Shown here: one piece after another, positions 9,584 to 46,140 of the stretch
Layout of the letters: each line of letters starts with the position of its first letter
Numbering within the stretch: position 1 is the first letter of the stretch
Assembly: GCA_028822445.1 (NCBI GenBank)
Contig: JAPKDQ010000009.1
Location: forward strand, 6,501-70,500
DNA from: Rhodospirillaceae bacterium
GTDB taxonomy: Bacteria > Pseudomonadota > Alphaproteobacteria > Rhodospirillales > Rhodospirillaceae
Length of the DNA stretch: 64,000 bases
Direction of reading: 5' to 3'
The notes under the pieces: generated by a model
What the model saw: the letters and a program-made list of their open reading frames with translations, nothing else
Database searches by the model: none
What the model was told of the DNA's origin: nothing
Made by a program: the position numbers and the translations under genes

Positions 9584-9600
9584 GGGGTTAACCTTTCTGA

Positions 9601-23962: not shown

Positions 23963-24882
23963 CCCGCTTTCCTTGCCAACTTGCTGAACAGAGCGTCTTC
24001 ATTCACCGTATCCCGGCGTTGTGCCTTCCATGTGGTCGCAAAACCATTTGGATAGTTAGCGTCGCCGTCTCGTTTTCCGTCTTCGGACCACAACATGGGG
24101 AACAAGGCACCCGCTGGCGGGTTACCTTCGACCATTTCATCAAATGACACTCCGGCAATGTTAAGGCAGTCCGGGCGTGGGGCCCACCGAATGTCATCGC
24201 CAAAAATGCGAGCAGATATAGCGATGCGCCAGTCTTCACTGGTGTTGCCCGATGAGTAATGAAGCGTCCACGGGTGTAAGACCAACATGTCGCCCGGATC
24301 CATTTCCCAATTTAGAAAGTGCGCATCTGGGTCGGCACGCAGCTTCGCCTCATCGGGGTGAGGCGCCCTGTCATCGGGCTTGATCATCTTGCGGGCATTG
24401 GGTGAGAAAAGCCAATAGGGTACGTCTTGTGATTGAGACCCAGCTAGGACTTCTAAGGAGTTTTCCGGAGAGACTGTGTTCAAAGGAATCCACAGTGACG
24501 GGACCATGCGACCAGACACAGGCCAGCCCATGCGGTCGCAATGCCACAGCGTTTTAGACTCTGACCGCGGTGGTTTGGCAAAAATTTCTTCAAAGAAAAA
24601 GCGCGCCGTCTTCGATCCAATCACCTCAGCCGCTGCCTGTCCCATGGGTGAGTCGAAAATAAATCGACGAAATTCCGGAATAATCCGAGACATATATCTG
24701 CCGGGTGCGGATGGAAGTAGACCAATGTCTTCTTCGTCGACGGAAATTCGCAGCGCCGTAGGTTGCATACTTTTCATCCAGTCAGGATCAAAGACTTTGC
24801 GCAGGCATACAACGCCGTCGCGTGCATATGTTTCGCGGTCTTCATCGTTGATGGCGCGAAGAGGTTCAGCGTTAAAGCCCAT
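23959..24882 (-). CDS. Phytanoyl-CoA dioxygenase (PhyH) family Fe(II)/2-oxoglutarate oxygenase
   Basis: N-terminal F..DGVVCLRKVF, H-x-D (WHCDRM) and distal His (LHPWTLHYS), consistent with the PhyH facial triad. Confidence 0.8.
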   Translation of the reverse strand: MGFNAEPLRAINDEDRETYARDGVVCLRKVFDPDWMKSMQPTALRISVDEEDIGLLPSAPGRYMSRIIPEFRRFIFDSPMGQAAAEVIGSKTARFFFEEIFAKPPRSESKTLWHCDRMGWPVSGRMVPSLWIPLNTVSPENSLEVLAGSQSQDVPYWLFSPNARKMIKPDDRAPHPDEAKLRADPDAHFLNWEMDPGDMLVLHPWTLHYSSGNTSEDWRIAISARIFGDDIRWAPRPDCLNIAGVSFDEMVEGNPPAGALFPMLWSEDGKRDGDANYPNGFATTWKAQRRDTVNEDALFSKLARKAG

Positions 24883-24992
24883 AGAGTAGTCTTTCTTTTA
24901 GTATGGGTTTAATTTCAACCGAATAACGGCACGGTGCAAATAGAAAATTTGGCCAATGGCATGCATTATTTTCATGGCATGTTGATATGCAC

Positions 24993-26582: not shown

Positions 26583-26605
26583 GAGCAGTTCCTACTCAGT
26601 ATCCA

Positions 26606-27691
26606 CTATGCTGGCTTCGTCGCAACGATGGTTTGTAAAAACCCGTTAGAGTTCTTCGGTCCAGGTTTCACATTAAATCCGGCATCTTTGAGTTCTTTGT
26701 GGAAGTCCATGTAGACAAAGCCCGGAGAGTAGGGTTCGCAATTATTGATGGAGTCATAGTCGATCATCCACCGCTGTGAGGCTGGCATGTTTGGTCCCGC
26801 GCTTGGGAACTCGTAAATACAGAAGGTGCCGCCAGGCCGCAGAATACGGAACATCTCCTTGACCGTTTCTTTAATCACCCGGACCGGAATCTCATGGAAC
26901 AAGATGTATGATAAAACCATATCGAACTTGTCAGCATCAATTTTGGTTTCTTCTGATAGGCCTTGAACGAAGTTAACATCGACCCCGCGTTTTACCGCTT
27001 GCCAGTGGGCGTACTTAACCATCGGCAACCCGACATCTAAGCCGGTTATTTCTGAGTCGGGATAGCGGTCTTTGAGGATTAAAGTGCACTGGCCAATGCT
27101 GCAGGCCAGGTCGAGAATTTTATCGACTTTGCCGTCTTCTGGTGGGGTTAGCGTATCGACAATTTCCGCATGAAGTTCGTCTTGGTCATTGGCGCCAGCG
27201 TAGAAAACTTTAGTACCATAATGGTACACGATGCCCCCGATGGGGTCGTCCGTGTAGCCGCCCGGTTGAAGGTGAATTTCACGGCGGGCGTAATTCGGCA
27301 CTTTAAAATTCGGATCAAGGGTCAGTTTGCCAGGGCCTTTGTTCTGGGCGTCATCCATGGCGTTGACTAAATCGTCCTGAAACGGCTCAAAGGAGCCTCG
27401 TGTCCGACGCCACATCATTTCCTGGTGGGTGCGCATGTAGCGCTGCCAGGTGGCCGGCAGAGGCAATTTGTTGATCACCTCTTTGATATCTTTGATATCG
27501 GTCGTGTCGTTGGTTTCGCCCAGGGCTTCAGCCACAGCCTTCTCACCTTCGGCGGCGACGGTCGCAAAGGTACCGTATCCGGCAATGCCGCGGAATGTTT
27601 CTACGAAATCGAGGTAACTCTCGTCCGATAGTCTGGTCGTGCGCGGTAAAATGCCGTTGTAGCCACGGGATAAGGCGACAGAGGTACTCAT
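26606..27691 (-). CDS. Class I SAM-dependent methyltransferase with ~180-aa N-terminal extension (cassette copy 1)
   Basis: Motif I variant ILDLACSIGQCT, post-I GLDVG and LRPGG. N-terminal region has IHLQPGGYT. Start overlaps the stop of the upstream small gene (ATGA at 27688-27691). Paralogue of 38947-40134. Confidence 0.8.
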   Translation of the reverse strand: MSTSVALSRGYNGILPRTTRLSDESYLDFVETFRGIAGYGTFATVAAEGEKAVAEALGETNDTTDIKDIKEVINKLPLPATWQRYMRTHQEMMWRRTRGSFEPFQDDLVNAMDDAQNKGPGKLTLDPNFKVPNYARREIHLQPGGYTDDPIGGIVYHYGTKVFYAGANDQDELHAEIVDTLTPPEDGKVDKILDLACSIGQCTLILKDRYPDSEITGLDVGLPMVKYAHWQAVKRGVDVNFVQGLSEETKIDADKFDMVLSYILFHEIPVRVIKETVKEMFRILRPGGTFCIYEFPSAGPNMPASQRWMIDYDSINNCEPYSPGFVYMDFHKELKDAGFNVKPGPKNSNGFLQTIVATKPA

Positions 27692-28053
27692 GATTGTTCT
27701 CCTGGTTCATCTGCAGGGTCCATGCCGAATTTAACGTCAACTGAGCCGCGAGACATGCGCCTAAACACATTTGACACAAGTTCAGCGCGCTCGGCGGCGC
27801 GCGCGGCATTGTCTTCTGGGGTGGGCTCGTAAGCTTCGATCAGCGCGCTAATGTTCTTGCCATTGCCTACAACGTCTTGCAACACGCGCTCGAGGATCAT
27901 TGAGCGATCCCGGTAGGTCCATACGGCCGCTGTTAATTCCAGCAAGGACTCATGGAGGTTATCGATTACTTGGTTGTCGAAGAACTGCTTGCCGGCGCCG
28001 TTTATTTCGTCGCCGAATACGAAGCGGGGGTCTTCTGGGGGCATGTTGTCCAT
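27688..28053 (-). CDS. Small (121 aa) acidic protein of unknown family (cassette copy 1)
   Basis: ORF with tight coupling on both sides (12 nt after the MFS stop, ATGA overlap with the MTase). Distant but recognisable similarity to 38596-38937 (FD.., ERVL/ERLL, A(Y/F)(E/R)P, RAEL/REAL, SNVF/SNRVF). Confidence 0.6.
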   Translation of the reverse strand: MDNMPPEDPRFVFGDEINGAGKQFFDNQVIDNLHESLLELTAAVWTYRDRSMILERVLQDVVGNGKNISALIEAYEPTPEDNAARAAERAELVSNVFRRMSRGSVDVKFGMDPADEPGEQS

Positions 28054-28065
28054 CTGTCTCTTCCT

Positions 28066-29436
28066 TTACGCGAGTTCTGCATCAATTTTACGAATATGTT
28101 CAGCATAGGGTTTCTTGCCGTAGAACAATATGGCGGCACCAATCAGCATGACGGTTGGGCAAACAACGCTGATTGAGTAACGAATAAGGTTTGGGTCGCC
28201 TAGAACATAGTCTGTGAAGACTGCCACTAAAAATGGCCCTCCGCCTTGACCTATGACATTAGCCACAAGAAGATATATAGCGACCATTTGCCCTCGCAGC
28301 CTGTTAGGCACAATCAACGGCAGGGCAGACGGCCCAGTGCCAAAGGGCATGGTGCCAAAGAAGACGACAGGCGCGAGTAAAATCAGCGACAGATCTTTGT
28401 CGGGAACTAGGGTGAAGGTGGCGAGAAACGGCGTTGCTAAAAGGGCGGAGATAAATCCGGCGCGCATATTTGAATCATTGTAGCCGCGACCCTTAAGCCA
28501 GTCTGAAAATAGCCCCCCGGTTACTACACCGGCGGAACCCAGGGTTACGAAATAGAGTCCAAAAATACTACCGATCTCGCCCGCCGTCATACCGTGGGTG
28601 CGCATAAAATAAGCTGGGACCCAGGCGCTGACTGAAAACATTGCAACGGTTAAGAATGTAAAGCCGAAGACAACAGGCAAGATCACTGTGTTATGGTCGA
28701 CTAAATATTGCCACGCCTGACCCAAAGAGAGGGCCTCATCTGTATGGCTGGCGGTTTTTGGCGTTGGAGTTCCAAGGCGTGGAGGTTCCCTTACCAGTAG
28801 CCATACGATCAGTGCAAATATAAGCCCGGGGATAGACACAATCAGAAAGGTCATTTGCCAAGGCCGAATGGTCCCTAGTAGCCCCATATCAACCGGGCCG
28901 ATTTCTGTCATTTTGCTAATCACAAAGCCACCGACCAGCAGCGCAATTCCAGTGCCGAGAAAACTTGATCCCGTGAACACGCTCAACGCCCGCGTGAGAC
29001 TCTTGCGCGGGAAGTAGTCAGCGAGCATAGAAAACCCAGCCGGAGACAAAGTCGCTTCGCCAACCCCAACCATCATCCGCGCTATAAACAATTGCCAAAA
29101 TACTTTCGCGAGGCCGCAGATGGTCGTGGCGATGGACCACAGCACCATACCCGCAAGAATGATGGTCTTACGATTTTTGGAATCGACCAGTCGCCCCATG
29201 GGAATGGCCGCAGCGCTATAGAACAACGCGAACGCAAACCCTTGCAGCAAACTCACCTGCGTATCAGAAATGCCCAAATCTTCTTTGATCGGGTCTACCA
29301 AAAGGCTAATGATTTGGCGATCAATAAAAGAAATAATTGCAGCTAGACACAACATAAGAACCACGAACCAGGCATATCCGTCGGTTCGAAACGCGAAGTT
29401 TGGATCAGGCTTGGTCTCGCTCGTTACGTCATTCAT
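28066..29436 (-). CDS. MFS transporter (anion/organic-acid permease-like)
   Basis: 456 aa, about 12 TM helices. MFS signature GRLVDSKNRK after TM2. Confidence 0.85.
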   Translation of the reverse strand: MNDVTSETKPDPNFAFRTDGYAWFVVLMLCLAAIISFIDRQIISLLVDPIKEDLGISDTQVSLLQGFAFALFYSAAAIPMGRLVDSKNRKTIILAGMVLWSIATTICGLAKVFWQLFIARMMVGVGEATLSPAGFSMLADYFPRKSLTRALSVFTGSSFLGTGIALLVGGFVISKMTEIGPVDMGLLGTIRPWQMTFLIVSIPGLIFALIVWLLVREPPRLGTPTPKTASHTDEALSLGQAWQYLVDHNTVILPVVFGFTFLTVAMFSVSAWVPAYFMRTHGMTAGEIGSIFGLYFVTLGSAGVVTGGLFSDWLKGRGYNDSNMRAGFISALLATPFLATFTLVPDKDLSLILLAPVVFFGTMPFGTGPSALPLIVPNRLRGQMVAIYLLVANVIGQGGGPFLVAVFTDYVLGDPNLIRYSISVVCPTVMLIGAAILFYGKKPYAEHIRKIDAELA

Positions 29437-29445
29437 AGAATGGTC

Positions 29446-31035
29446 CTAGCCAGCAATTAGGTCGGCGGCTTTCTCGCCGATCATCAGTGCAGTTGCATTG
29501 GTGTTGCCGCTAATAAGGTCAGGCATAATGGACGCGTCGGCAACACGCAGGCCGTCTACGCCACGGACCTTTAAATCAGGCGTCACCACAGAATCAGAAT
29601 CTGATCCCATGCGGCAGGTGCCGACGACATGGTAGCCAAGAAACGCGGTCTTGCGGAGGAACGCAGCCCACTCATCGTCACTCTGTACATCTTCGCCTGG
29701 CAGGAGTTCAGCTGTACGGTGTTGGGCAAAAGCAGGGCCAGATAATAGTTGTCGCACAGACCGGCACCCTTCGATCAGTTTCACCAAGTCTTCTTCATTG
29801 TCAAAAAGATTATGGGTGATGATTGGCGACGCCAACGGGTCGTTCGACTTTAACCTCACAGTGCCGCGTGTCTTGGGGTAGGCGATATTGACGGCAGCCG
29901 AAATCGCGGGCTTATCGTGGGGAATGACCCCATTCTCATCAAAGCTAAAGGCGTAGGGCCCCAGTTGAATTTGCAAGTCAGCGTAATTCTGAGCGGGGTC
30001 CGATTTGGTGAATGCTACAGCATGCGGGTAGGGGCTGGTTGCTGGTCCGCGACCGAATAGCAACCAATTAGCGGCATGCAGGATAATCTTCCAGCTGTTG
30101 ATTTCTGTATTGTAGGTCGACTGGTTGACCTCAATACTCACCATGCCCTCGGGATGTTCTTGCAAGTTTTGTCCGACGCCGGGTGCATTGTGTCTCACAT
30201 CGATGCCATGGTTTTTCAAGTCTTCTTCCGGACCGATGCCACTGAGCATGAGTATTTTCGGTGTTGAAAGTGTGCCAGCGCTGATCGTCACACTGGCGCT
30301 TGCTTTTACCGTTTTGACCGAGGCGCCCTTTTGGTAACGAACGCCGGTACATCGCGATCCGTCAAAGGTCAGGTTTGTCACCATAGCCCTGGTTATAATC
30401 TTAAGGTTGCGTGGTTTTTTCCCTGGCCACAGATAGGCACGGGCAGCGTGATAGCGCCATCCCCGGGACTGGGTTACTTGGCTATAGGCGACACCAAGTT
30501 GTTCGACACCGTTGTAGTCCTCGTTGAAGGGTATGCCGGACTCTTTTGCGGCCTCAACAAACACATGGGCGAGCGGATGCGTGGTGCGCAAATGGTTAAC
30601 GTTTATAGGGCCGGTGCGGCCTCGTACCGCATGGTCACCAATCAAGGTTTGTTCAAGCCTTTTAAATACAGGGAGGAGGTCATCATAGGCCCACCCGGCA
30701 CACCCGTTCTCTGCCCAACGGTTGTAGTCATGGGCCTGGCCTCTAACGTAAAGCATGCCATTAATGGAGCTGGAGCCTCCAAGAACTTTTCCAGCAGGCC
30801 ATAGATCAACTTTGCCATTTCGACTTTGGTCTGGTTCAGCCATATGCATCCAATCCAGACTTGGATTGCCCATGGCCTTTATGATGGCGGCAGGAACGTG
30901 AATGAACGGAGAAAAGTCACGCCCACCGGCTTCAAGCAGCAGAACTGTTTCCGCCGGTCGGTGTTTGGCTAGGCGATACCCCAGCGCAGACCCTGCAGAT
31001 CCACCGCCGATTATGATGTGGTCAAATGATGTCAT
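29446..31035 (-). CDS. GMC-family FAD oxidoreductase (choline/alcohol dehydrogenase-like)
   Basis: FDHIIIGGGSAGSALGYRLA FAD motif and C-terminal HVVGTCRMG...ADASIMP. ATG at 31035 overlaps the LysR stop (ATGA). Confidence 0.9.
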   Translation of the reverse strand: MTSFDHIIIGGGSAGSALGYRLAKHRPAETVLLLEAGGRDFSPFIHVPAAIIKAMGNPSLDWMHMAEPDQSRNGKVDLWPAGKVLGGSSSINGMLYVRGQAHDYNRWAENGCAGWAYDDLLPVFKRLEQTLIGDHAVRGRTGPINVNHLRTTHPLAHVFVEAAKESGIPFNEDYNGVEQLGVAYSQVTQSRGWRYHAARAYLWPGKKPRNLKIITRAMVTNLTFDGSRCTGVRYQKGASVKTVKASASVTISAGTLSTPKILMLSGIGPEEDLKNHGIDVRHNAPGVGQNLQEHPEGMVSIEVNQSTYNTEINSWKIILHAANWLLFGRGPATSPYPHAVAFTKSDPAQNYADLQIQLGPYAFSFDENGVIPHDKPAISAAVNIAYPKTRGTVRLKSNDPLASPIITHNLFDNEEDLVKLIEGCRSVRQLLSGPAFAQHRTAELLPGEDVQSDDEWAAFLRKTAFLGYHVVGTCRMGSDSDSVVTPDLKVRGVDGLRVADASIMPDLISGNTNATALMIGEKAADLIAG

Positions 31036-31943
31036 GCAGCAAGCGCGGGCCAATCTGAGAACGACGCGCGGGCTGCTTCAATAAAGTGCTGAACTGCTGG
31101 GCGACGGGCTTCTGAATAGCGCAAAATAAGACCTGATGATCGTTCAAAGGTCGCGCCCTTCAATTCTAAGCATTTTATCCGGCCACCTGCTATGTCCTCT
31201 TCGAGGAGATGCTCTGGCAAGATGCTCGCGTAATTACCGGACAGAACGAGTGAGCGGAGGAGGGAGAGAGAGTTAGTTTCAATTGCCGGCCGACCCATTG
31301 TCAAATTCTCTGTCGCAAATAGGTCGGCGAGCAACGACGACACATGCGCTTGGCGCACAAGTGCGAGGTTACAGCCTCTTACATCGGCCCAGGTGGTGCG
31401 TGACTTTCTGGCTAAGGGATGACCTGCGCTGATGACGAATTGAGATCGCACGGTTATCAGCGGCTCGAAGACTAACTCTTCATCAGCTATACCCGGCGGA
31501 AAATTCGTGATCAGGGCTTCGACGTGCGCGGTCTTTAGGTCCATGATGAGGTCTTCATAAAACCCCTCGGTGACGTTGAGGGTAAGGCCTGGAACTGCTT
31601 TGGCGAGACGGACCAACACCTTAGCCATGGGATCTCCTGCAAACATTGCTGCAACGCCAATATTGAGGGAGCCTAGCTCGCCCTTGGCCGTTGCGGTGAC
31701 GTCGCTTGCTGTGTTCTCTGTCTCATTCAAAATCATCTTGGCTCGATGGTAGAGCCGCGTTCCGGCCTCAGTCGGCGCGATGCCGCGCGGCTGTCGTTCT
31801 AGAAGTTTTGCGTGCAGTCGGGCTTCTAGGTTTTTGATGCTGCGGGTCAGAGCGGGCTGGGTGATGCACAAAACAACGGCGGCGGCGGATACTGTTCCAC
31901 TCTCTATGACGGCGACAAAATGCCGCAATTGCTTAAATTCCAT
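31032..31943 (-). CDS. LysR-family transcriptional regulator
   Basis: MEFKQLRHFVAVIESGTVSAAAVVLCITQPALTRSIKNLE HTH. 303 aa. Confidence 0.9.
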   Translation of the reverse strand: MEFKQLRHFVAVIESGTVSAAAVVLCITQPALTRSIKNLEARLHAKLLERQPRGIAPTEAGTRLYHRAKMILNETENTASDVTATAKGELGSLNIGVAAMFAGDPMAKVLVRLAKAVPGLTLNVTEGFYEDLIMDLKTAHVEALITNFPPGIADEELVFEPLITVRSQFVISAGHPLARKSRTTWADVRGCNLALVRQAHVSSLLADLFATENLTMGRPAIETNSLSLLRSLVLSGNYASILPEHLLEEDIAGGRIKCLELKGATFERSSGLILRYSEARRPAVQHFIEAARASFSDWPALAA

Positions 31944-31975
31944 AACCTACCTCGATTTTTCAGTCTAAGTATGGC

Positions 31976-31990
31976 TATATAAAAACTATA
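31976..31990. promoter_or_regulatory. Candidate LysR-type box (TAT-N9-ATA dyad, TATATAAAAACTATA)
   Basis: AT-rich dyad in the 189-bp divergent region between the LysR gene and the 32133 operon. Only a pattern match. Confidence 0.2.
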
Positions 31991-32132
31991 ACTTCCAGTG
32001 TTTTTTCATACTTTATCTATAAAAATAATGAATGGATTTATTATCACTTTGATTTGGCCCTTTGTTATTCCAAAAGGCACACTTCGGATAGAATGCGTGG
32101 GGGTTCTGCGGCGTATTAAATGGGGTTTTTCT

Positions 32133-32936
32133 ATGCAAATGATCGATATAGGGGATGCGGAGTTGGCGACGTGGCGCGAGGGTAAGGGAGACCCGGTTTT
32201 TCTGATTTCTGGTTTAGGCGGTCGGGCCGCGTTCTGGTCTGAATTGATCACAGGCCTCGCACCGCACTTTGACGTCATTTCACATGATCACCGTGGCACA
32301 GGCGCGAGTACGAAATCCAAAATTGACTACTCGATATCTCAGATGGCCGATGATGTAATGAAGCTGATGGGCGCGTTGAATATTCCCAAGGCGGCCTTGG
32401 TCGGGCATTCCACCGGCGGTGCGATCGCCCAGCACCTTGCGCTTAATCATGCAGAACGTATTACGAAAATTGTTTTAAGCGCAACATGGGCGGGGCCCAA
32501 CCTCTATTTCAAGACTTTGTTTGAGTTACGGTCTCAGATTCTTCGTGATGCTGGACCAGAGGCCTATATGATCGACGGAATTTTACGGGCGCACCCTCAT
32601 GATACTGTCTCGAATACCCCGGCATTGTTGGCGGCAACTAACGAAGAGCGACTTGCTGCATTCCCTGGAGAAGAGATTGAACAGTCTCGTATTCGCGCCG
32701 TGTTGGCCCATGATCTTCGAGCTCAAGTTCCCAACATTGCTTTGCCGTCCTTCGTTATTTGTGCAGAAGATGATCAAATCACGCCGGTTGGTTTTTCCCA
32801 TGAGCTGATCGATCTTATTCCAAACGTCCAAAGCACCCTCCTGCCACGTGGCGGGCACTTCATGCCGCGCGTGGAACCAGATGCTTATAATGCAGCGGTG
32901 TTATCTTTTCTTACCAATACACAATCGGAGATGTAG
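32133..32936 (+). CDS. Alpha/beta hydrolase (3-oxoadipate enol-lactonase-like)
   Basis: PVFLISGLGGRAAFW, nucleophile elbow GHSTGG and C-terminal GGHF. ATG at 32133; the track ORF from 31998 adds an implausible extension. Confidence 0.85.
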   Translation: MQMIDIGDAELATWREGKGDPVFLISGLGGRAAFWSELITGLAPHFDVISHDHRGTGASTKSKIDYSISQMADDVMKLMGALNIPKAALVGHSTGGAIAQHLALNHAERITKIVLSATWAGPNLYFKTLFELRSQILRDAGPEAYMIDGILRAHPHDTVSNTPALLAATNEERLAAFPGEEIEQSRIRAVLAHDLRAQVPNIALPSFVICAEDDQITPVGFSHELIDLIPNVQSTLLPRGGHFMPRVEPDAYNAAVLSFLTNTQSEM

Positions 32937-32938
32937 TC

Positions 32939-33448
32939 ATGGCGACAGAGGTTGATGTCAAAGCACCATGGTGGGCAGTTGTTGGTCCAGACGAAGGTGA
33001 GTCTATTTGGCAGCCAGAACCATCGGAGGGTTATGTGACCGTCAACCTGACGCCAGAGAACACTCCCTATGACGGCTTTTCATCGGGTATTCAAGTTCTG
33101 CCGCCGGGATGCCATGTCCGCGAACATGGGCATTTGCAAAATCACGAATTAATCTTCATCTATGAAGGTACTGGCCGGTGTGAAATCGAAGACGAGATGT
33201 ATGAGATTGGTCCTGGCTCGACCGTGATGTTCGGGCGCTATGCAAAACACTTACTTGAAAATACGGGCGACATAGATATGAAGTTGTTCTGGGTTTTCAT
33301 GCCGCCAGGACTGGAAGATTGGTTTCGCGCAATCGGTAAAGTCCGCACGCCGGGTGAGCCCATACCAAAAAAATTCTCGCGACCGGAAGATGTGATGGAC
33401 GTGATGAAGGCTATGAAATTTGTGCCGCGACCGGCAGACGCAAAATAA
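32939..33448 (+). CDS. Cupin-domain protein
   Basis: Cupin motifs HGHLQNHELIFIYEGTG and GPGSTVMFGRYAKHLLEN. GGAG RBS. Confidence 0.8.
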   Translation: MATEVDVKAPWWAVVGPDEGESIWQPEPSEGYVTVNLTPENTPYDGFSSGIQVLPPGCHVREHGHLQNHELIFIYEGTGRCEIEDEMYEIGPGSTVMFGRYAKHLLENTGDIDMKLFWVFMPPGLEDWFRAIGKVRTPGEPIPKKFSRPEDVMDVMKAMKFVPRPADAK

Positions 33449-33472
33449 TCTTACGGAGACCAGGAAATAGAA

Positions 33473-34462
33473 ATGTTAGTGCTTAATCGAGACGCTGTAT
33501 CAGCTAGCCTCAGTCATGCTGAATGTGTCGACCTCATGGCTGCGGCCATGCGTGTAGTTTCCAGCCGAGATATCGTCATGCCACTGCGTCAGTTTATGGC
33601 CGTGCCCGATACCGAAGGAAAGTTGGGCATGATGCCTGGGTACTTGGGTAAGACCAATGATACCGAGCCTACTTTTGGTATTAAGGTCGTGAGTAAGTTC
33701 CCGCGAGAATCTGGCAGCCCCCTTTCAAGCCATGTGGGTGCGGTTATTTTGTTTGAAGCTAAATACGGCCTACCTATCGCGTTTATGGATGGCCGAGAAC
33801 TGACAGCTATCCGCACCTCAGCAACGACGGCGATGGCGACGCGGGTGTTGGCGCGTGAAGATGCAGCATCAATTACATTCATTGGCTGTGGTGAAGAAGC
33901 CCGGCATCACATTCAAGCTATTCTGTCAGTACGCCCGATCAAAAAGATCACCGTTTGGGGTCGCAATTTGAATCGCGCCAAGGCCTTTGCTGCTGCGCAA
34001 GACTTGCCGTTGGGCGTTGCTATTGAAGTCGAGTCTGACCTTGAAACAGCAGTGCGAGAGTCAGAAATTTTATGTACGGTGACGTCATCGACGCAGCCGA
34101 TCCTCAAAGGCTCATGGTTGCAGTCAGGTGTTCACGTTAACCTTGTCGGCGCGGCGGTTCGGACGTCTGCGGAAGCCGATTCGGATGTGGTGAAATGTAG
34201 CCGATTCTATGTCGATTATCTGCCATCTGCGATGGAGCAAGCGGGTGAATTAGTTAACGCTATTGAAGCAGGCCTGGTGACGCCCGGGCATGTTGTTGGT
34301 GAAATTGGCGGCGTCCTAAATGGTGATGCACCGGGTAGGGCCTCGGCCCAAGAGATAACAGTGTATAAGTCTTTGGGTGTGGCGGCGCAGGATTTAGCTG
34401 CCGGTGTGGCCGCCGCGAAGAATGCAGAAGCGGGTAATATTGGCACGTCTGTTGAGTGGTAA
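33473..34462 (+). CDS. Ornithine cyclodeaminase / mu-crystallin family protein
   Basis: TAIRTSATTAMATRVLAR and Rossmann FIGCGEEARHH, typical of the OCD/mu-crystallin family. Confidence 0.85.
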   Translation: MLVLNRDAVSASLSHAECVDLMAAAMRVVSSRDIVMPLRQFMAVPDTEGKLGMMPGYLGKTNDTEPTFGIKVVSKFPRESGSPLSSHVGAVILFEAKYGLPIAFMDGRELTAIRTSATTAMATRVLAREDAASITFIGCGEEARHHIQAILSVRPIKKITVWGRNLNRAKAFAAAQDLPLGVAIEVESDLETAVRESEILCTVTSSTQPILKGSWLQSGVHVNLVGAAVRTSAEADSDVVKCSRFYVDYLPSAMEQAGELVNAIEAGLVTPGHVVGEIGGVLNGDAPGRASAQEITVYKSLGVAAQDLAAGVAAAKNAEAGNIGTSVEW

Positions 34463-34472
34463 GGAAAGCAGA

Positions 34473-35294
34473 ATGATCTCTTTGAAAAAGCGCTTAGAGC
34501 AAAAGGAAATCGTTCGGGTGCCTGGCATCTATGATGCGCTGACCGCAACGCTGGCAGAAAAGGCCGGGTTCGAGGCTACGTTCATCTCGGGCTCTGCCGT
34601 ATCCTTTAGCCAACTCGCTAGGCCCGACATTGGGTTTGTGACGCAAACAGAAATGGCTCAGGTGGTGGACCGTGTACGCGATCGAATCTCAATCCCTTTG
34701 TTCGTTGACGCGGACTCTGGGTTTGGTAATGCGTTTAATGTGGCGCGTACGGTACGAATGTTTGAACGGGCCGGGGCCTCCGGTATTCAGATCGAAGATC
34801 AACTCAATACTAAGGTCGTTACTGAAGTTAGCAGTCGCCCCTTAGTGCCCACCGACGCGATGGTCGGCAAAATTAAAGCTGCATTGGATGCCCGCCAGTC
34901 CGAGGACACTATCATTAGTGCCCGTAGCGATGCGATGTTCACTGAAGGGGTGGGCGCCGCTTTGGAACGCGCTGTCGCCTATGCCGATGCGGGCGCGGAT
35001 ATGGTTTTCGTCGAGGGCCTGACAGAAGCCGATGACAGAACAAAACTCTGTGACGCGTTGAAAGACCGCGTTCTGCTGTTGTTTAACCTGTTGAAGCCCG
35101 GGGCGCTGGGTACACCATCGCCGGAAGATTTAGAAGTCCAGGGCTACGACATCGTGTTGTTTCCATCGGCTGTCATCGGCCCAGTCGCCAACGCGGCGTG
35201 GCAATCGTTAAACCAGCTCGCTGGAAACGATGTCCCTAAAGACTCTATTCCTGTGACAAATCTGATTGATATCAACGCGCAGTCGAAGTGTTAA
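34473..35294 (+). CDS. Isocitrate lyase/PEP mutase superfamily protein (lacks canonical KxCGH loop)
   Basis: VPGIYDALTATLAEKAGFEA, LFVDADSGFGNAFNVARTV and GIQIEDQ motifs. After EDQ the sequence reads LNTKVVTEVSSRP instead of K(R/K)CGH. ATG 34473 with AAGGAAAG upstream. Confidence 0.8.
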   Translation: MISLKKRLEQKEIVRVPGIYDALTATLAEKAGFEATFISGSAVSFSQLARPDIGFVTQTEMAQVVDRVRDRISIPLFVDADSGFGNAFNVARTVRMFERAGASGIQIEDQLNTKVVTEVSSRPLVPTDAMVGKIKAALDARQSEDTIISARSDAMFTEGVGAALERAVAYADAGADMVFVEGLTEADDRTKLCDALKDRVLLLFNLLKPGALGTPSPEDLEVQGYDIVLFPSAVIGPVANAAWQSLNQLAGNDVPKDSIPVTNLIDINAQSKC

Positions 35295-37811: not shown

Positions 37812-38594
37812 ATGGCAGACGCTAAAGGCGAAGACGGCGGAACCAAGACCCTTCAGACTGTTTCACGAGCGATGGCCATTCTCGAACTGATTAGTCGGGA
37901 TGGCCCGTTAAACGTGACTTCGATCTCACGCGTCATCGGCATTTCTCGGTCTGCTACGCTGCGCATCCTAAAGACGTTAATCGTTAGTGGGCATGTCGCT
38001 AAACCGCGGAACGCGCGAACTTACTTTCTTACAGAGCGCATTTTAACGCTGTCGTCTGGATACACGCGCAACAACATACTCGCCAAGGTAACAGAACCGA
38101 TCATTCGGAATGCGGCGCAACGCCTTTTGTGGCCTATGGTTTTGACTGTTCCCGTTGGTCCGGAAATGCTCGTTTTGATCACGACGGAACCGGAGAGCCC
38201 TTTGGCCCTGCAACGTATGACAGCTGGTTATCGTATGGCGCTGCCGGACACGGCTTCCGCGAGGGTGATTTTAGCGCAATCGAGACCAGAGGTTTGTGAC
38301 GAATACTTAACCTTCGTCCGCCAATCGCCTGGTACGGCGTCGCAGGCTGGCGTGTTCGAAGGTGGTGTGATGCGCGCGCGCAAGGACGGGTTTGCGTTTC
38401 ATCAGGTTCAGGGGTCGCGGGAGAAGTCCCTCGCAGTCGCAATAGTAGTCGGTGGTACAGCTGTTGCCGGCCTAACCGCTCGCTTTATCGCATCAGCCCT
38501 CACGGACTCGAAGGCACAAGAAACGGTCCTGCCAGTACTGCAAAGCACAGGCTCGCGCATTAGTGATGCGCTGGCTTCAGCACCGACGACTTAA
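37812..38594 (+). CDS. IclR-family transcriptional regulator
   Basis: HTH LQTVSRAMAILELISRDGPLNVTSISRVIGISRSATLRILKTL. 260 aa. Starts 5 nt after the molybdoenzyme stop. Confidence 0.85.
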   Translation: MADAKGEDGGTKTLQTVSRAMAILELISRDGPLNVTSISRVIGISRSATLRILKTLIVSGHVAKPRNARTYFLTERILTLSSGYTRNNILAKVTEPIIRNAAQRLLWPMVLTVPVGPEMLVLITTEPESPLALQRMTAGYRMALPDTASARVILAQSRPEVCDEYLTFVRQSPGTASQAGVFEGGVMRARKDGFAFHQVQGSREKSLAVAIVVGGTAVAGLTARFIASALTDSKAQETVLPVLQSTGSRISDALASAPTT

Positions 38595-38595: not shown

Positions 38596-38937
38596 TTATA
38601 TGTTGTCTCCGGGTGCATCCCCTGGGATCGCCTTTTCAGCGCGCTCGGCTTGTTGCAAGAGCAGGTAAAATACTCGGTTGCTGATGTCCTCGCGTAAGGC
38701 TTCTCGATCAGTGGTAGCGGCCTCATCTGGTCTGAACGCGTTCACATCAGACTGGTTCAGAATACCCTTTGACTCAAGGAGGCGCTCTACTGCATCTAAA
38801 CGTTGACGAGTGACGATCAGTTCATTGAGAAGCGAGACATTCATCGACAACAAAATATCATTCGCTTCATCGTCGAACATCATCGGTCTCGGACCTTTGG
38901 CAACCCGCGGCAATTTGACTTTCTGTTCGTCACTCAT
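38596..38937 (-). CDS. Small (113 aa) acidic protein of unknown family (cassette copy 2)
   Basis: Starts 9 nt after the MTase stop (TAG-GGGGCGGCT-ATG). Similar to 27688-28053. Confidence 0.6.
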   Translation of the reverse strand: MSDEQKVKLPRVAKGPRPMMFDDEANDILLSMNVSLLNELIVTRQRLDAVERLLESKGILNQSDVNAFRPDEAATTDREALREDISNRVFYLLLQQAERAEKAIPGDAPGDNI

Positions 38938-38946
38938 AGCCGCCCC

Positions 38947-40134
38947 CTATTCTTTGATGCCAATAATAAATGCCATCCCAAGAGGTGATCCCGGAGGTGC
39001 ACCATGTCCAGCGGACCGCGATGTTTCAATAGCGGCATCAATCTTGGCTTGATCCTTACCCCCTTTGACCTGAGAGAAATCTCGGATCACGTTCTCAGGT
39101 AAGAAGCCGGCATCGATCGTGACTTTTTTGAGGTCCAATGTTCGGAATTTTGTCCAAAATGGTTCGTTATTGTAGTGGGTTTCATTGGTGTAGATGAACT
39201 GCCGGTAGGGATCGATTTCGTTAAGCTGAGGCAGATCTGCATGAATCATAATTCCACCTGGGCTAAGAAGGCGGTGGCATTCCTTGATGATTGCGGGCCA
39301 AGCCTTGGTTGACGTTTCATGGGCTAATATGTTTGATGTTATGATGTCAAAGCTACCATCTTCGAATTTGGTATGCTCAGCCGACTGTTGAGAGAAGTGT
39401 ATTTTGTGGCCTAGGGCTTCTGCGCGTGCATGGCCGTAGCGCAGCAGCGCGGGCCCGAGGTCGATGGCGTAAACGTCTGCTTGTGGCCACCGGTTTACGT
39501 AGGCCGCTGTGCTCTGGCCAATGGTGCATCCCATATCAAGAACGCGGGCCGGCTTGAGGTTGGGGAATATGGCGTCTAGGTATTGCGTTACAATACGGCC
39601 TGCCATGTCTGTCATGCCGCTGCTGCCACTATTATAGATATGAATGGCGCGATCATAAATTGCTCCAGCCGCGATATCATCTTCGCAGTGCTCGGCGGTA
39701 AAGCCACCGGGCTGGCAGTGAATATCCACCGCCGTAACATAGCGTGGCAGTTCCAGATCCGGGTCCAGTTCTAGGGTCCCAAGATTCTGTTCCATGTTCT
39801 TCGATCGTTTGATGAGGTCGGGCAGTTGTTCCTCGACCGGAGTGACGAGAGATTCAAACATCAGCTCCTGGACTACGCGATGGAACCCCATTTGGAATTT
39901 CATATATGTGCCCTTGAGCATTTCTTTACGAATTTGTCGGTACTCGTTTAAGGGGGTGCCTGTTTTTTTTTCATAGGCTGGTTTGATTTCACGATAGAAT
40001 TGCTGACGGCTTCCAGCCGCGAATTTACGGAGGAGTGACTGCCTCAGCGTGCGAACATTGTTTTGGCGTTCCGCTTCGTCATGGCTCCGGTTCGTCATCA
40101 TGCCGTGTTCATGCTGGGCTTCAGGCATCATCAT
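38947..40134 (-). CDS. Class I SAM-dependent methyltransferase with long N-terminal extension (cassette copy 2)
   Basis: VLDMGCTIGQST (motif I variant), IDLGP, LSPGG. N-terminal IHCQPGGFT. Paralogue of 26606-27691. Confidence 0.8.
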   Translation of the reverse strand: MMMPEAQHEHGMMTNRSHDEAERQNNVRTLRQSLLRKFAAGSRQQFYREIKPAYEKKTGTPLNEYRQIRKEMLKGTYMKFQMGFHRVVQELMFESLVTPVEEQLPDLIKRSKNMEQNLGTLELDPDLELPRYVTAVDIHCQPGGFTAEHCEDDIAAGAIYDRAIHIYNSGSSGMTDMAGRIVTQYLDAIFPNLKPARVLDMGCTIGQSTAAYVNRWPQADVYAIDLGPALLRYGHARAEALGHKIHFSQQSAEHTKFEDGSFDIITSNILAHETSTKAWPAIIKECHRLLSPGGIMIHADLPQLNEIDPYRQFIYTNETHYNNEPFWTKFRTLDLKKVTIDAGFLPENVIRDFSQVKGGKDQAKIDAAIETSRSAGHGAPPGSPLGMAFIIGIKE

Positions 40135-40370
40135 CCTTTTCGTATGCGCTATTGGTTTTATAGACCTTAGTCTATTCGTTTTTTTTAAGGCAGAATATCT
40201 AGTGCTTCATTCTGAATGTTCAGCTGGTCTCTGAATCCCGTACACAGCGAGTATTCGGCGCTTGCACAGATGCACGGTAGGATCGAGAAGGCGCTTGAGG
40301 AGTAGGCAAAAGAGTTCGACCCGTTACCATCAATGATTATAATCTAAGTACTGTCGCAATCTAATTCAGA

Positions 40371-40838
40371 TTATTGAACTTGGCGGGCCATCGCGCCCAT
40401 GATTTTCCAGTCTCCATCGGTATCTTTCACCCAAACATGGATGGTGTGATATCGCTGATTCACCTCAGTGCCATCCGGCGCGACCGTTCGGTGCGTGTTG
40501 TAATAGATGACACCCGTGTTGCCGTGCATGGCGAAATCATCAAAGTACAATTCTAATTTTTCTGAGTTCGGAAACCTAAATAGGCCAGACTCCTGATTTT
40601 TTTTGAGTTGAGAAATAGGCGATGGCTTCGGTGTACCAGGGGGCCACCCAACATAGTTCGGTGATGAATTTTCGATATAGTAATCGAGGCCCGTTTTGGC
40701 GCGTGCTTTGTAGATGGCCTGTTCTTTTGCCCAAACAATTTTCTTTGCTTCTTCATATTCCCTGGCAGATTGTGCCTGAGACACGTTTGCCGGTCCCATC
40801 GCAATGATGGCGAGTGCGAGAAGTATAATACGGATCAT
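40371..40838 (-). CDS. Secreted DUF4440/SnoaL-like (NTF2-fold) protein
   Basis: Signal peptide MIRIILLALAIIAMGPANVSQA. C-terminal HTIHVWVKDTDGDWKIMGAMA is typical of the NTF2-like fold. Paralogue of 45607-46140. Confidence 0.6.
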   Translation of the reverse strand: MIRIILLALAIIAMGPANVSQAQSAREYEEAKKIVWAKEQAIYKARAKTGLDYYIENSSPNYVGWPPGTPKPSPISQLKKNQESGLFRFPNSEKLELYFDDFAMHGNTGVIYYNTHRTVAPDGTEVNQRYHTIHVWVKDTDGDWKIMGAMARQVQ

Positions 40839-40849
40839 TACTACCTCAT

Positions 40850-42151
40850 TTATGATTGCGGTGTTGGCGGTGTTTCGCCGCGCGCGCGGATAATGCTGCG
40901 CATAATGGTGTTAGGAACGAACGTATTGTCCCAGTGATTATCTTTCGGCGGCGCATTACCTATCCGGAGAATCACGAGACCTTCAGATGGAATAATGTAA
41001 ACGACCTGATTGGAATTGCCATCATAGAGGTATAGGTCTTCGGCGAGATACGGCTCTGCATGATTTGTTACCCCCATATTCGGGACGTCTGGATTAGCCG
41101 CACCACGCGTTTCTACATAGGCGCCAGCAATATAAAGCCCCATACCAGCCCAAAGATTCTGTGGCGTGGCGATTTTCGTCTGCTCAACATAGCCTTCTGG
41201 CAGCAGACGAACCCCATCCCATACGCCGTCAAAGTAGCTCAGTAGACCGAGGCGCATGAATGCTCCAGCCGGGAGCATAATGCAGCAGCCGGAATGGGCT
41301 GTGCCGCCTTCGCGATTAAGCCAAACTTGCCCACCCTTAGAACCAAGAGGCTTGAGTATTTGCTCTGAAACCCATTCGCCATATCGTACACCAGTTGCGC
41401 GCTCTATCAGCGGAGCGACCATTTCTGATGTTGCATTAGAGTAGTCATACCGTTCACCTGGCTTATGGGTGAGTGGGTATTCATTGATAATCACGTCGTC
41501 ATGGTAGGGGTGAAGATACGAGCGATTTAAAATGCTCTCTGGCTCACGCTCCATACCTTGGCGAAGGAAGCCCGTGCGCATATCCAAGAGGTGTCGAATA
41601 AGCATGGGTTCTCTATCCGTACCCTTCCACTCCGTAATGAAATCGCTGACCCGTTGATCAATGGACTTAATGTGGCCCTCCATAATGGCGCGGCCGACTG
41701 CGATGACTGTAACTGGCTTGGCCAGAGAACGGCCAACGATCAAGGTGTCCGCATCAGCGCCATTGAAATATGCTTCACGCTCTAATTTTCCTTTTCGCCA
41801 AACCATGAAAGCCTGTGAGTTTCTTGCCCCTGCATACTCTTCAGCCACATCTAAGGCATCTCGTGTGACAGTGCTTACCTTGTTCTGATCAGTCAGGGGG
41901 AGGGGGGCAAATTCGGCTAAACCCTGAACGTCTTCTAAAACGTCGTATCGAAATCCGCCATTTTGGCCGCCACTACCACCGAACAAGGCGTTGAGACGCA
42001 AGAGGTATAACTCTTTAGCTTCTGGCGGATACTTTGCGTCAACATCTATCTGGGTAATATCTTGGGCTACTACACTTGTGATATTTGTTATACTGAGCAG
42101 CGCGATGATTGGAAAACTTAAAGCAAGTGCGTAACTGCAAAGTCGTAGCAT
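40850..42151 (-). CDS. Secreted serine hydrolase (class C beta-lactamase/esterase family)
   Basis: S-x-x-K (GRSLAKPV) and Y-x-N (YDYSNAT) motifs. ATG 42151 with GGAG 9 nt upstream gives signal peptide MLRLCSYALALSFPIIALL. Confidence 0.8.
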   Translation of the reverse strand: MLRLCSYALALSFPIIALLSITNITSVVAQDITQIDVDAKYPPEAKELYLLRLNALFGGSGGQNGGFRYDVLEDVQGLAEFAPLPLTDQNKVSTVTRDALDVAEEYAGARNSQAFMVWRKGKLEREAYFNGADADTLIVGRSLAKPVTVIAVGRAIMEGHIKSIDQRVSDFITEWKGTDREPMLIRHLLDMRTGFLRQGMEREPESILNRSYLHPYHDDVIINEYPLTHKPGERYDYSNATSEMVAPLIERATGVRYGEWVSEQILKPLGSKGGQVWLNREGGTAHSGCCIMLPAGAFMRLGLLSYFDGVWDGVRLLPEGYVEQTKIATPQNLWAGMGLYIAGAYVETRGAANPDVPNMGVTNHAEPYLAEDLYLYDGNSNQVVYIIPSEGLVILRIGNAPPKDNHWDNTFVPNTIMRSIIRARGETPPTPQS

Positions 42152-42259
42152 GCAGAAAAACTCCAAAGTTTATGTGTGTGAACGTATATATGACTATGCC
42201 ATAGTTACTCAATATTGGTCCATGCCGCTGGGCGATGACAGGCTTTAAGCGGCTGTGTT

Positions 42260-43108
42260 CTAAGTATTTCGCCGCCAAGTGGTCGGGAAGAGTTGCGCCG
42301 GAAGGGGCTCGCCTTCTTTTATGTCCGGGCTATTCTGGAACGGTGATTTTTTTGAGGTCGGGTTATTCTCGTATCTGATGTCACTCCCAAGCCACCGGAG
42401 TGAAAACGCAACTCGGCGCCCAAATTGACCAGCGGTTCTGGGGAGGGACGCGTGGATGGTCTTTGGATGGATAATCAGCATATCGCCGGCTTTAACTTCC
42501 CAAACACGAATGTCTGCATATGGTGCGTGAACGCGTTCTAAGAGCTCCTCCCATGTATGGAAATTCGGTGGCGGTTTAACACCGTCGAGCGCCCATGAGC
42601 TGACATAACGATGCGCATCTTTGTTTGAACCAGAGAGTGTTTGTACTGGAGCGTTGTTTAGGTCGACGTCTGTTAGTGCTATCCACATGGACGGAGCATG
42701 GTGCCCTCGTAACGGAAAAAGACATTCGTCATTATGCCACGGCGTGGCGGTTGCTTCGTCTTCTCCCTCTTTAAGGAATGTTCCGTCAGTCCAAGGTTGC
42801 ATAGTATCTGACCCAATGACGTCGGCGACGATCTGGGCACAGTCGGAATGTTCGACTAAATTGCGCATCTCAGGTAAACGCGGATACAAATTGACTAGCC
42901 GGACATAGCCATCATGATCTTCGTATTGAATATCCGGCATCATCTCTTGGGGACCGAACGCTATAGTGCCGGTGCGTATGCCTAAGATAGCGTCGTCAAT
43001 AACCTTGGTCATGCCGGCGACCCACTCTTGCGTCATTGCACCGACGACGTGTGTTACGCCAACTTCGTTATAGGTCTCTATGATGTCTTGAGTGACTTTT
43101 GGATGCAT
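42260..43108 (-). CDS. Phytanoyl-CoA dioxygenase (PhyH) family Fe(II)/2-oxoglutarate oxygenase
   Basis: H-x-D (PWHNDE) and distal His (IIHPKTIHAS). Paralogue of 23959-24882. Confidence 0.8.
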   Translation of the reverse strand: MHPKVTQDIIETYNEVGVTHVVGAMTQEWVAGMTKVIDDAILGIRTGTIAFGPQEMMPDIQYEDHDGYVRLVNLYPRLPEMRNLVEHSDCAQIVADVIGSDTMQPWTDGTFLKEGEDEATATPWHNDECLFPLRGHHAPSMWIALTDVDLNNAPVQTLSGSNKDAHRYVSSWALDGVKPPPNFHTWEELLERVHAPYADIRVWEVKAGDMLIIHPKTIHASLPRTAGQFGRRVAFSLRWLGSDIRYENNPTSKKSPFQNSPDIKEGEPLPAQLFPTTWRRNT

Positions 43109-43217: not shown

Positions 43218-44105
43218 TTACCCGTAACTTTCTGCTTCTGTCTTTTTCGCCGTCTCAATTGTCTCAAAGTCGTCCATTTCTCCGCTGATGAAGCGGTGCA
43301 ACACCGAAACGTAATCGGCCGTTTTATCAGGGTGGTGGTGCGGATGCCTGCCAACGAATGTATACCCAACAGCTCCATCGGCTAACCTAAGAACTTTTCT
43401 ATGGCAGTCGTTCAATGGATCTGTTTCGGCAGTGAGAGCGAGGGTTGGAACGGTTACTTTCTGTAACGCCTCTTCCATATTGTAGTTTCTAAGTGCGTCG
43501 GCAGAATCGTCGCTTTGCTGAGCGAGCATGCTATCGATAACGGCATTCCGTAAAAAGTCTGCGCCACCCTCATCGAGGACGAAGCTTGAATCCCACATGC
43601 GTTGCAGCCATAAAGAGCGTTCCCAGACCCAGGCGATATGTGATCCGTCTTCTTTCCAGTCCGGCGTTGGCTGGCGTGCTGTCGCAAGAACCTCTTCGCG
43701 GAACGTGCGATCCCAGACAGGGCTCCCATCGAGGATAAGCCTAGAAACTTTTTGTGGATGGCTCAGGGAAAGCTCTACCGCAATCTCGGCGGAGAGATGT
43801 CCACCGAGCACCACAGCCCCTTCGATGTTTAGACCGTCCATAACGGAAGCAATATTGTCTGCGTAGTCGCCGATGGCCCATGGTTTTGGCCTTGGGTCTG
43901 ACTGACCATATCCAAGGTGATCTGGCGCGTAGGCCGCATAACCAAGATTAGCAAGGCAGGATAAAGTCGGTGTGTATTGACGGCTTGACGCGGGGGTCCA
44001 GTGAAGCAAAATTATTGGCATGCCGTTCCCCGCGGAACGCACGTGCACAAAGCCAGATGGTGTTTCTACGAAAGCGCGGTGATTGCGTAAGGATAAGGTA
44101 TGCAT
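43218..44105 (-). CDS. Alpha/beta hydrolase
   Basis: PIILLHWTPASSRQY and nucleophile-elbow-like LGGHLSAE. 295 aa. Nucleophile identity not obvious. Confidence 0.75.
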   Translation of the reverse strand: MHTLSLRNHRAFVETPSGFVHVRSAGNGMPIILLHWTPASSRQYTPTLSCLANLGYAAYAPDHLGYGQSDPRPKPWAIGDYADNIASVMDGLNIEGAVVLGGHLSAEIAVELSLSHPQKVSRLILDGSPVWDRTFREEVLATARQPTPDWKEDGSHIAWVWERSLWLQRMWDSSFVLDEGGADFLRNAVIDSMLAQQSDDSADALRNYNMEEALQKVTVPTLALTAETDPLNDCHRKVLRLADGAVGYTFVGRHPHHHPDKTADYVSVLHRFISGEMDDFETIETAKKTEAESYG

Positions 44106-45606: not shown

Positions 45607-46140
45607 ATGGTATTTAAAATCAACGTTCGGGTGATTGTTTCTGTTTTAGTCTTTTTAGGCATTCCCCTTGGGCTATCTGCAGAGGAAGAAAATAACGAAA
45701 TTCCTCTGGCGCGGGAGGCGGACGCAGAAAAGATTTGGGCGCAAGAATTGCATATCTATGAGATGCGCAGTGGCGGTGACATGGGCTACTACCTGTCTCT
45801 CGCCAGTCCGGGCTACATGGCTTGGCCAGCACCAGCTGAAGCACCTCTTAATTTTAAGAAGTTATCAGAGCGTATCGGCGGTGGTCAGCTAATGGAAGCG
45901 GGAGAGCTTATCACTGTCTCTAAAAAAGGCTTGTCGTTCGATGGGGATACTGCACTAGCATTTTTCGAAACACACCGGACGCAAAGGGCAGGCGGCAAAG
46001 CGGTCGACGAGCGCTTCGAGAATATCCATGTCTGGGTGAAGCGTGATGAAGAGTGGCGTTTGATCGCTAATATGTCGCGCGCTGTTGCCGAAAATCGCGA
46101 GAGACTGGGCAACACCACTATAAATCATGATACGGACTAA
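45607..46140 (+). CDS. Secreted DUF4440/SnoaL-like (NTF2-fold) protein
   Basis: Signal-like N-terminus. Aligns with 40371-40838 (EKIWAQELHIYEM / KKIVWAKEQAIYKA; ENIHVWVKRDEEWRLIANMS / HTIHVWVKDTDGDWKIMGAMA). Confidence 0.6.
   Translation: MVFKINVRVIVSVLVFLGIPLGLSAEEENNEIPLAREADAEKIWAQELHIYEMRSGGDMGYYLSLASPGYMAWPAPAEAPLNFKKLSERIGGGQLMEAGELITVSKKGLSFDGDTALAFFETHRTQRAGGKAVDERFENIHVWVKRDEEWRLIANMSRAVAENRERLGNTTINHDTD

Follow-up and report, generated by a model that had tools for sequence, protein, structure and literature searches.

The methyltransferases (MTases) activated by Trm112, namely Trm9, Trm11, Mtq2, Bud23 and the METTL5-TRMT112 pair, are class I enzymes that work with a small, dedicated, non-catalytic partner. 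Trm112 is a zinc-knuckle/β-sheet protein and is common to several MTases. A likewise two-part arrangement, in which the gene for a predicted class I S-adenosylmethionine (SAM)-dependent MTase, MT2, is followed directly by the gene for a small protein, small2, is found in the Rhodospirillaceae bacterium DNA analysed here. The stretch examined, referred to as the window, comprises the 64,000 nucleotides from position 6501 to 70500 of contig JAPKDQ010000009.1 (C1:6501-70500 of genome G000, an assembly of 2.85 Mb that is 98.9% complete); G001-G008 denote genomes of the same genus, and L numbers denote loci or contigs from relatives. MT2 resembles the NovO/CouO C-methyltransferases, the phosphoethanolamine N-methyltransferases (PMT) and RebM/AtmM in having a predicted Rossmann core, a motif-I-like sequence (LDMGCTxG) and an acidic residue after the second strand.

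The window holds two such pairs, MT1-small1 (cassette 1) and MT2-small2 (cassette 2), and the initial annotation noticed that a gene for a PhyH-family oxygenase lies near each of them. That observation is true, and the two genes concerned, PhyH1 and PhyH2, are two of only three PhyH genes in G000. This had led to the proposal that oxygenase, MTase and small protein make up a conserved core with variable accessory enzymes; the present analysis supports that interpretation only in part. The region from 38.6 to 44.1 kb is instead likely to consist of two evolutionarily separable units that lie side by side and do not form one cassette.

Results

Rechecking of the open reading frames (ORFs) recovered all five minus-strand genes of cassette 2 where the initial annotation had placed them, separated by gaps of 108, 11, 236 and 9 nt. 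The IclR gene, convergent with them, was found, as had been reported, to end 1 nt from the stop codon of the small ORF. The five genes encode PhyH2, a 282-aa Fe(II)/2-oxoglutarate dioxygenase (42260-43108; PF05721, 67.8 bits against a cut-off of 22); a β-lactamase-fold serine hydrolase (40850-42151, with an alternative TTG start at 42166; PF00144, 85.5 bits against a cut-off of 27); a 155-aa NTF2-like protein (40371-40838); the N-terminally extended MTase MT2, of 395 aa (38947-40134; Methyltransf_25, 75 bits, and Methyltransf_11); and its predicted helical-hairpin partner small2, of 113 aa (38596-38937; 111.7 bits with the family hidden Markov model (HMM)). The PhyH and Beta-lactamase domain assignments exceeded their Pfam cut-offs and the MTase assignment was confirmed, but the DUF4440 assignment (PF14534) fell short, scoring 24.4 bits where 25.2 is required, and the product of that gene is therefore best named an NTF2-like, DUF4440-related protein. 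Two features had been overlooked. An α/β-hydrolase gene (43218-44105, minus strand; 295 aa; Abhydrolase_1, 53 bits) precedes PhyH2, in the same orientation, by 109 nt, is divergent from an M24 gene at 44275 and is probably the first gene of the PhyH2 operon. The second feature is a gene remnant inside the 236-bp gap that precedes MT2.

When the FAD_binding_3 protein encoded in the same-genus locus L001 was compared with this gap by tblastn, its residues 352-383 (58%) and 378-395 (61%) were matched in two frames. The remnant occupies 40228-40361 on the plus strand and represents the last ~44 codons, now frameshifted, of an FAD_binding_3 monooxygenase gene. In the relatives L001, L005 and L006 (same-genus MT2 identity is 83% in L001/L002 and 82% in L006), an intact gene of this kind, encoding 395 aa on the opposite strand, separates the DUF4440-like gene from MT2. 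Given the remnant in the window and the intact gene in these relatives, the direct adjacency of the PhyH2 genes and MT2 is the product of a deletion. In L005 (G008:C53) a block at 2880-9735 separates the FAD monooxygenase gene from MT2; its three genes encode a transglutaminase-like protein, a circularly permuted ATP-grasp protein with Alpha-E, and a DUF2126 amidoligase with a transglutaminase domain. The PhyH2 orthologue lies 10.6 kb from the MT2 orthologue both in G008 and in G001 and, judged by this matching spacing, the same block has probably been inserted in G001 too. This junction is a hot spot of rearrangement, with a deletion in G000 and an 8.5-kb insertion in G008.

The surroundings of MT2 in more distant genomes were consistent with this separation. 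Seven MT2 orthologues were found outside the genus synteny (L003, 78% identity; L007, 77%; L004, 60%; L209, 58%; L210, 57%; L211, 56%; L212, 52%), and a small partner accompanied all seven, whereas a PhyH gene accompanied none. The neighbours that recurred around them were MFS_2, CN_hydrolase, α/β-hydrolase, DUF1838 (in L004, L210 and L211), MoCoBD with Fer2, and IclR genes. A wider survey covered 80 species-representative loci of the MTase family (1.35 Mb, six-frame translation) from Rhodospirillaceae, Binatia, Nostocales, Gammaproteobacteria, sphingomonads and Caulobacterales, and used a PhyH profile built from 23 diverse Pfam-verified genes, with which a narrower six-sequence HMM agreed. 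The small partner was found within 2.2 kb of the MTase in 80/80 loci and PhyH in 1/80, the exception being the same-genus locus L006. The most frequent neighbour of the family is thus the small protein and not PhyH, and enrichment of PhyH beside the cassette in other genomes was absent both for the family and for cassette 2. Conversely, at 15 other alphaproteobacterial loci with PhyH1- or PhyH2-like genes, no MTase, small-protein, hydrolase or DUF4440-like gene was found within the fetched flanks of ~1.5 kb (less on one side at two of the loci).

The proximity of PhyH genes to MTase genes was also counted within whole genomes. PhyH genes lying within 5 kb of an MTase numbered 2/3 in G000, 2/9 in G001, 3/6 in G008 and 1/3 in G012, and the MTases near a PhyH gene were correspondingly 2/45, 2/43, 3/42 and 1/17. 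Because 13% of all genes in G000 lie within 5 kb of one of its 46 MTase copies, the presence of PhyH near both cassettes is only marginally unexpected (hypergeometric p ~0.05, uncorrected). Three further PhyH-MTase proximities were seen in relatives, and in none did PhyH belong to the transcription unit of the MTase. In one contig (L123, or G008:C60, at 5894-7819) an α/β-hydrolase gene is followed directly by a PhyH2-like gene (48% identity), the two being divergent from another MTase copy, and the pair that is really conserved may be α/β-hydrolase then PhyH2.

Several observations weigh against so clean a division. The scan of 40135-40370 found no minus-strand terminator and no convincing promoter, the hits being as many as expected from shuffled sequence, and transcription could therefore read through from the PhyH2 operon into MT2 in G000. 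The PhyH2 block lies 3.4-10.6 kb from MT2 in all nine genomes of the genus, and such constant closeness may be due to a weak functional link and not just to shared descent. Across G000, G001, G008 and G012 together, 8/21 PhyH genes are near MTases against ~2.3 expected, an excess of ~3-fold that is mild and drawn from non-independent genomes. Lastly, a 50% orthologue of the serine hydrolase adjoins the MT2 orthologue in one distant contig, L212, which suggests that the hydrolase, and not PhyH, may be loosely linked to MT2.

For cassette 1 the association with PhyH fared better. This cassette (23959-31943) has the composition given in the initial annotation, as judged by ORFs and Pfam, in the order GMC, MFS, small1, MT1, FAD_binding_4 and PhyH1 (PF05721, 70.7 bits against the same cut-off of 22). 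It forms part of a larger supercluster (23959-35294, both strands), defined by ORFs, Pfam matches and recurrence around MT1 orthologues, in which the minus strand carries PhyH1, FAD_binding_4, MT1, small1, MFS, GMC and LysR genes and the plus strand carries α/β-hydrolase, cupin, OCD and PEP-mutase-like genes. MT1 orthologues (49-79% identity) were collected on contigs outside the genus by a contig search with the encoded protein and a metagenome scan; a class-level search of 400 genomes yielded only three MT1 orthologues besides that of the window. Gene orders in this set (L125-L187) were read by tblastn, since ORF calling mislabelled loci of high GC content. In shuffled order, the set holds small1 then MT1, FAD_binding_4, FAD_binding_3, an OATP-like MFS gene and LysR, together with α/β-hydrolase, cupin, OCD and PEP-mutase-like genes, and GMC and PhyH1 are sometimes added. 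Cultured genera, namely Erythrobacter (L127) and Henriciella (L128), are among the carriers.

PhyH1 orthologues (60-78% identity) were present in 10/20 MT1 loci flanked by 4 kb or more on each side and in 20/59 overall. At least five placements occur (immediately behind the MTase, after FAD_binding_4-FAD_binding_3, after a divergent LysR gene, in a divergent GMC-PhyH-LysR unit, and convergent), and PhyH1 tends to travel with the GMC oxidase as an accessory pair. Eight loci that form one syntenic group are without PhyH1, as are two further loci; the syntenic group with Erythrobacter has neither PhyH1 nor GMC. For cassette 1 the proposal is thus half right, PhyH1 being common around MT1 but not found throughout; the oxygenase link of this orthogroup is real, but PhyH is an accessory and no fixed part of a core. 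MT1 clusters of the type without PhyH have, ~8.5 kb upstream, a second MTase-then-small module that is not orthologous (30-35% identity to MT2; L152, L162, L166 and L178, at ~340-1770), which indicates that two modules per cluster recur in other lineages.

The two cassettes are old relatives. MT1 and MT2 are 30% identical (E=6e-37), the N-terminal extension included, and PhyH1 and PhyH2 are 33% identical (E=2e-24). In pairwise comparison small1 and small2 are barely alike (E=0.11), and an iterated HMM joins them in one family at 99 and 112 bits. In a maximum-likelihood tree of the 45 paralogues of G000, MT1 falls in a 14-member clade (support 100/100) in which the partner, when present, is always upstream, and MT2 falls in a 25-member clade (100/99) in which it is usually downstream; the window follows this pattern, with small then MTase at 26606-28053 and MTase then small at 38596-40134. 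At least 25 G000 paralogues resemble MT2 more closely than MT1 does. The separate deep clades and the opposite gene orders indicate that the cassettes represent old subfamilies, and they rule out the block duplication of a PhyH-MTase-small unit.

MT2 has the features of a class I SAM-dependent MTase: a predicted Rossmann fold, a motif I of the SAM-binding type and an acidic residue behind the second strand. MT2 scores 424 bits with the family HMM, as against <120 bits for generic MTases, and a search of PDB sequences gave only generic Rossmann-core matches. The AlphaFold2 (AF2) model of MT2 (predicted local distance difference test (pLDDT) score, 93.1) places the Rossmann core after an N-terminal hairpin of two ~40-residue helices, and Foldseek matched this model only to the core of NovO/CouO, PMT and RebM, with a query TM-score of at most 0.43. 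Residues invariant in the family include G202/C203/G206 and D225, and the motifs DIHCQPGGY, ILxHET and NNEPFW are characteristic. The AF2 model of small2 (pLDDT, 78) has helices at 24-56 and 72-102 and a disordered, conserved N-terminal tail; no match to the predicted fold was found in the PDB, nor any match to the sequence in Pfam or NCBIfam. The model shows no Cys/His cluster, and Cys has a frequency of only 0.2% across the small family.

The evolutionary distances of MTases and partners are closely correlated. Among 19 adjacent pairs the Mantel r was 0.735, a value reached in 0/5000 permutations, and r was 0.76 and 0.80 within the two gene-order classes. Co-duplication as a unit would yield the same correlation without physical binding.

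MTase genes of this family are unusually numerous in G000, in which the iterated HMM detected 45 full-length copies and one fragment (248-473 bits). All-against-all clustering showed the family to be the largest paralogous family of the genome, ahead of SDR (41), SBP5 (31), one α/β-hydrolase family (30), Tat-signal DUF1838-like proteins (25) and β-lactamase-fold hydrolases (about 10-12), and it outnumbers the ABC ATPases. All eight same-genus genomes carry 30-52 copies and one sister genus carries 17; at E<=1e-40 no copy was found in 11 other family- or order-level genomes searched. The small family has 25 members in G000 and is adjacent to 22/46 MTase genes. Tandem MTase arrays (C7:176738-181117 and C7:53438-57020) are without partner genes of their own, and orphan small genes stand beside unrelated genes such as those for an ABC exporter and SBP5 proteins.

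These MTase copies are dispersed amid operons for transporters, oxidases and hydrolases. Within 5 kb of them the sole strongly enriched family is the small protein (19/21, p=1.6e-15), the next being the α/β-hydrolase family (11/30, p=8e-4). The operon-mates of the MTases are heterogeneous, with no family present in more than 3/38 operons, and many MTase/small pairs stand alone. A literature search on the MTase expansion and on the gene combination found nothing relevant.

PhyH2 has no signal peptide and keeps the H125-x-D127 motif, the counterpart of H114/D116 in PhyH1; His residues are conserved in a shared HPxT[IL]H segment, and one of these would be the distal ligand of the iron-binding facial triad. 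Its nearest solved relatives are MysH (53 bits) and SnoK, and its orthologues were found only within the genus; elsewhere among 300 sampled alphaproteobacterial genomes identity is at most 34%. The catalytic motifs of the serine hydrolase (S147xxK150, Y242-S-N244 and H291-S-G293) are intact, the PDB structures nearest to it are 8rlj, a class-C-like serine hydrolase, and the 6-aminohexanoate-dimer hydrolase, and it is best described as a candidate family VIII esterase or NylB-like enzyme belonging to a family with ~10 paralogues in G000. Both this hydrolase and the DUF4440-like protein start with a signal-peptide-like sequence. The α/β-hydrolase orthologue is present in L006 and absent from L001.

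The DUF4440 match covers only the C-terminal half of the model, and comparison of the protein with the PDB gave a weak match (E=0.014) to the CaMKII association domain, which has an NTF2-like fold. Paralogues are encoded at 45607-46140 on the plus strand of the window (28% identity, E=4e-24) and at G000:C28:6714-7163, both being predicted to be secreted. The former comes after the M24 creatinase-like gene and is not at that position in L001.

The IclR-family regulator gene downstream of small2 (37812-38594, plus strand; HTH_IclR) is variable within the genus: L001 and L006 lack it, and L005 has a copy with 75% identity. The MT2 orthologues in L004, L210 and L212 likewise have IclR genes nearby.

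Discussion

The gene content, the deletion scar and the rarity of PhyH around MT2 orthologues argue for two units. Unit A (44105-40371, minus strand) would be a four-gene operon for the α/β-hydrolase, PhyH2, the serine hydrolase and the NTF2-like protein, with a probable role in taking apart an ester- or amide-linked organic compound. The serine hydrolase and the NTF2-like protein are predicted to be periplasmic and PhyH2 cytoplasmic, so that a compound hydrolysed in the periplasm could then be hydroxylated and hydrolysed once more in the cytoplasm. Unit B (40134-38596, minus strand) would be an autonomous MT2-small2 module, one of the 45 MTase copies, encoding a putative two-subunit SAM-dependent small-molecule methyltransferase in which the helical hairpin of small2 would dock on the unique N-terminal helical hairpin of MT2. 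The two would be neighbours in G000 only through loss of the opposite-strand FAD monooxygenase gene, of which the 3′ remnant is left.

An alternative that deserves some weight, though it seems improbable, is that the region from 24 to 49 kb is a single co-adapted catabolic island of the genus for related compounds, comprising the MT1 supercluster, a molybdenum cofactor (MoCo) enzyme, MT2-small2, the PhyH2 operon and the M24/amine-oxidase operon, in which MT2 and the PhyH2 operon would cooperate loosely without a fixed core. The region is syntenic across the genus, and the second MTase/small modules beside the MT1 supercluster in L152, L162, L166 and L178 fit such an arrangement. So do the MoCoBD genes that lie near the MT2 orthologues of L210 and L211, as in the window, the serine hydrolase orthologue and PAP_fibrillin-like gene near that of L212, as in L001, and the modest excess of PhyH genes close to MTases. 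Descent alone, however, would be expected to preserve synteny within a genus, and the junctions of the proposed island are the rearrangement hot spots described above. Furthermore, MT2-small2 in L003 stands in a polysaccharide-synthesis context with none of these genes, L007 likewise lacks them, and no shared regulator is evident.

A conserved functional core of PhyH, MTase and small protein, acting on one substrate in both cassettes while the accessory enzymes vary, is very unlikely. The presence of PhyH near both cassettes and its recurrence in half of the well-flanked MT1 loci, in arrangements that include small>MT>PhyH and PhyH<small>MT, are what such a core would lead one to expect. The other half of those loci nevertheless lack PhyH, as do all seven cassette-2 orthologue contexts outside the genus and all but one of the 80 family loci; only 2/45 MTases in G000 are near a PhyH gene, and the deletion scar separates the two units. 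Nor is PhyH2 an orthologue of PhyH1, the 33% identity between them being well short of the 60-78% seen among PhyH1 orthologues.

Least credible of all is a protecting-group logic like that of BioC/BioH, in which the MTase would methyl-esterify a carboxylate and neighbouring esterases (the α/β-hydrolase and the β-lactamase-fold hydrolase) would remove the methyl later: the best NCBIfam core matches do include BioC (55 bits) and trans-aconitate MTase, and α/β-hydrolases recur near MT1 and MT2 orthologues and are the second most enriched MTase neighbour, but those matches are all far below cut-offs and reflect generic Rossmann similarity, the enrichment fails correction for the ~100 families tested, that α/β-hydrolase family occurs in only 2/38 MTase operons, the serine hydrolase is exported while the MTase is cytoplasmic, and acceptor chemistry is not readable from sequence.

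If the reading of two separable units is adopted, the context of cassette 2 is unfit as evidence for an oxygenase-methyltransferase-small-protein core, and the value of the finding is mainly corrective; for comparative work on the MTase and its partner family, the two-gene pair is the unit to use. Three points are new here: the PhyH link is specific to the MT1 orthogroup, a deletion scar lies between the two units, and the family has been amplified throughout the genus, to ~45 copies. For a SAM-dependent enzyme, such a copy number in a single marine genus is unusual as a genomic signature, and it hints at a broad role in metabolism. It is possible, though the suggestion is a tentative one, that the MTase/small module is a modular "methylation adaptor" that has been amplified to 30-52 copies per genome in this marine Rhodospirillaceae genus. 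Were this so, it would represent an undescribed strategy in which two-subunit SAM-dependent methylation is a routine step in the use of many environmental organic compounds, and the cassette-1 type (small, MT1, PhyH1, flavin oxidases and hydrolase-cupin-OCD) would be its most widely conserved pathway. The MT1 orthogroup cluster in cultured genera offers a tractable place for finding the substrate of the family.

Comparison with known systems places the components of both units near well-described enzymes and apart from them in several respects. PhyH2 passes the PF05721 cut-off and keeps the HxD motif, as do MysH of mycosporine-like amino-acid biosynthesis, SnoK, phytanoyl-CoA hydroxylase and EctD, but its similarity to these enzymes is low. 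The serine hydrolase shares the SxxK, YxN and HxG motifs of family VIII carboxylesterases, NylB and class-C-like hydrolases, and is set apart by its predicted export and by its ~10-copy paralogous family in G000. MT2 matches the Methyltransf_11/25 enzymes in Pfam at 65-75 bits, and these also provide its best PDB sequence and fold matches. Unlike NovO, PMT and RebM, however, MT2 has ~190 extra N-terminal residues that include the two ~40-residue helices and are without a solved counterpart, and its family has invariant motifs of its own, an obligatory adjacent gene for a partner of ~110 aa, and the high copy number seen in one genus.

The resemblance to the Trm112-activated enzymes lies in the pairing of a class I MTase with a small partner and does not extend to the fold of that partner. 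Whereas Trm112 is built on a zinc knuckle and β-sheet, small2 is predicted to be an all-helical hairpin that lacks a Cys/His cluster, and would thus fall outside the Trm112 fold. In addition, Trm112 serves several MTases, whereas each paired MTase of the present family has its own co-diversifying partner copy, and the neighbouring genes suggest a role in small-molecule metabolism rather than in the modification of RNA or protein.

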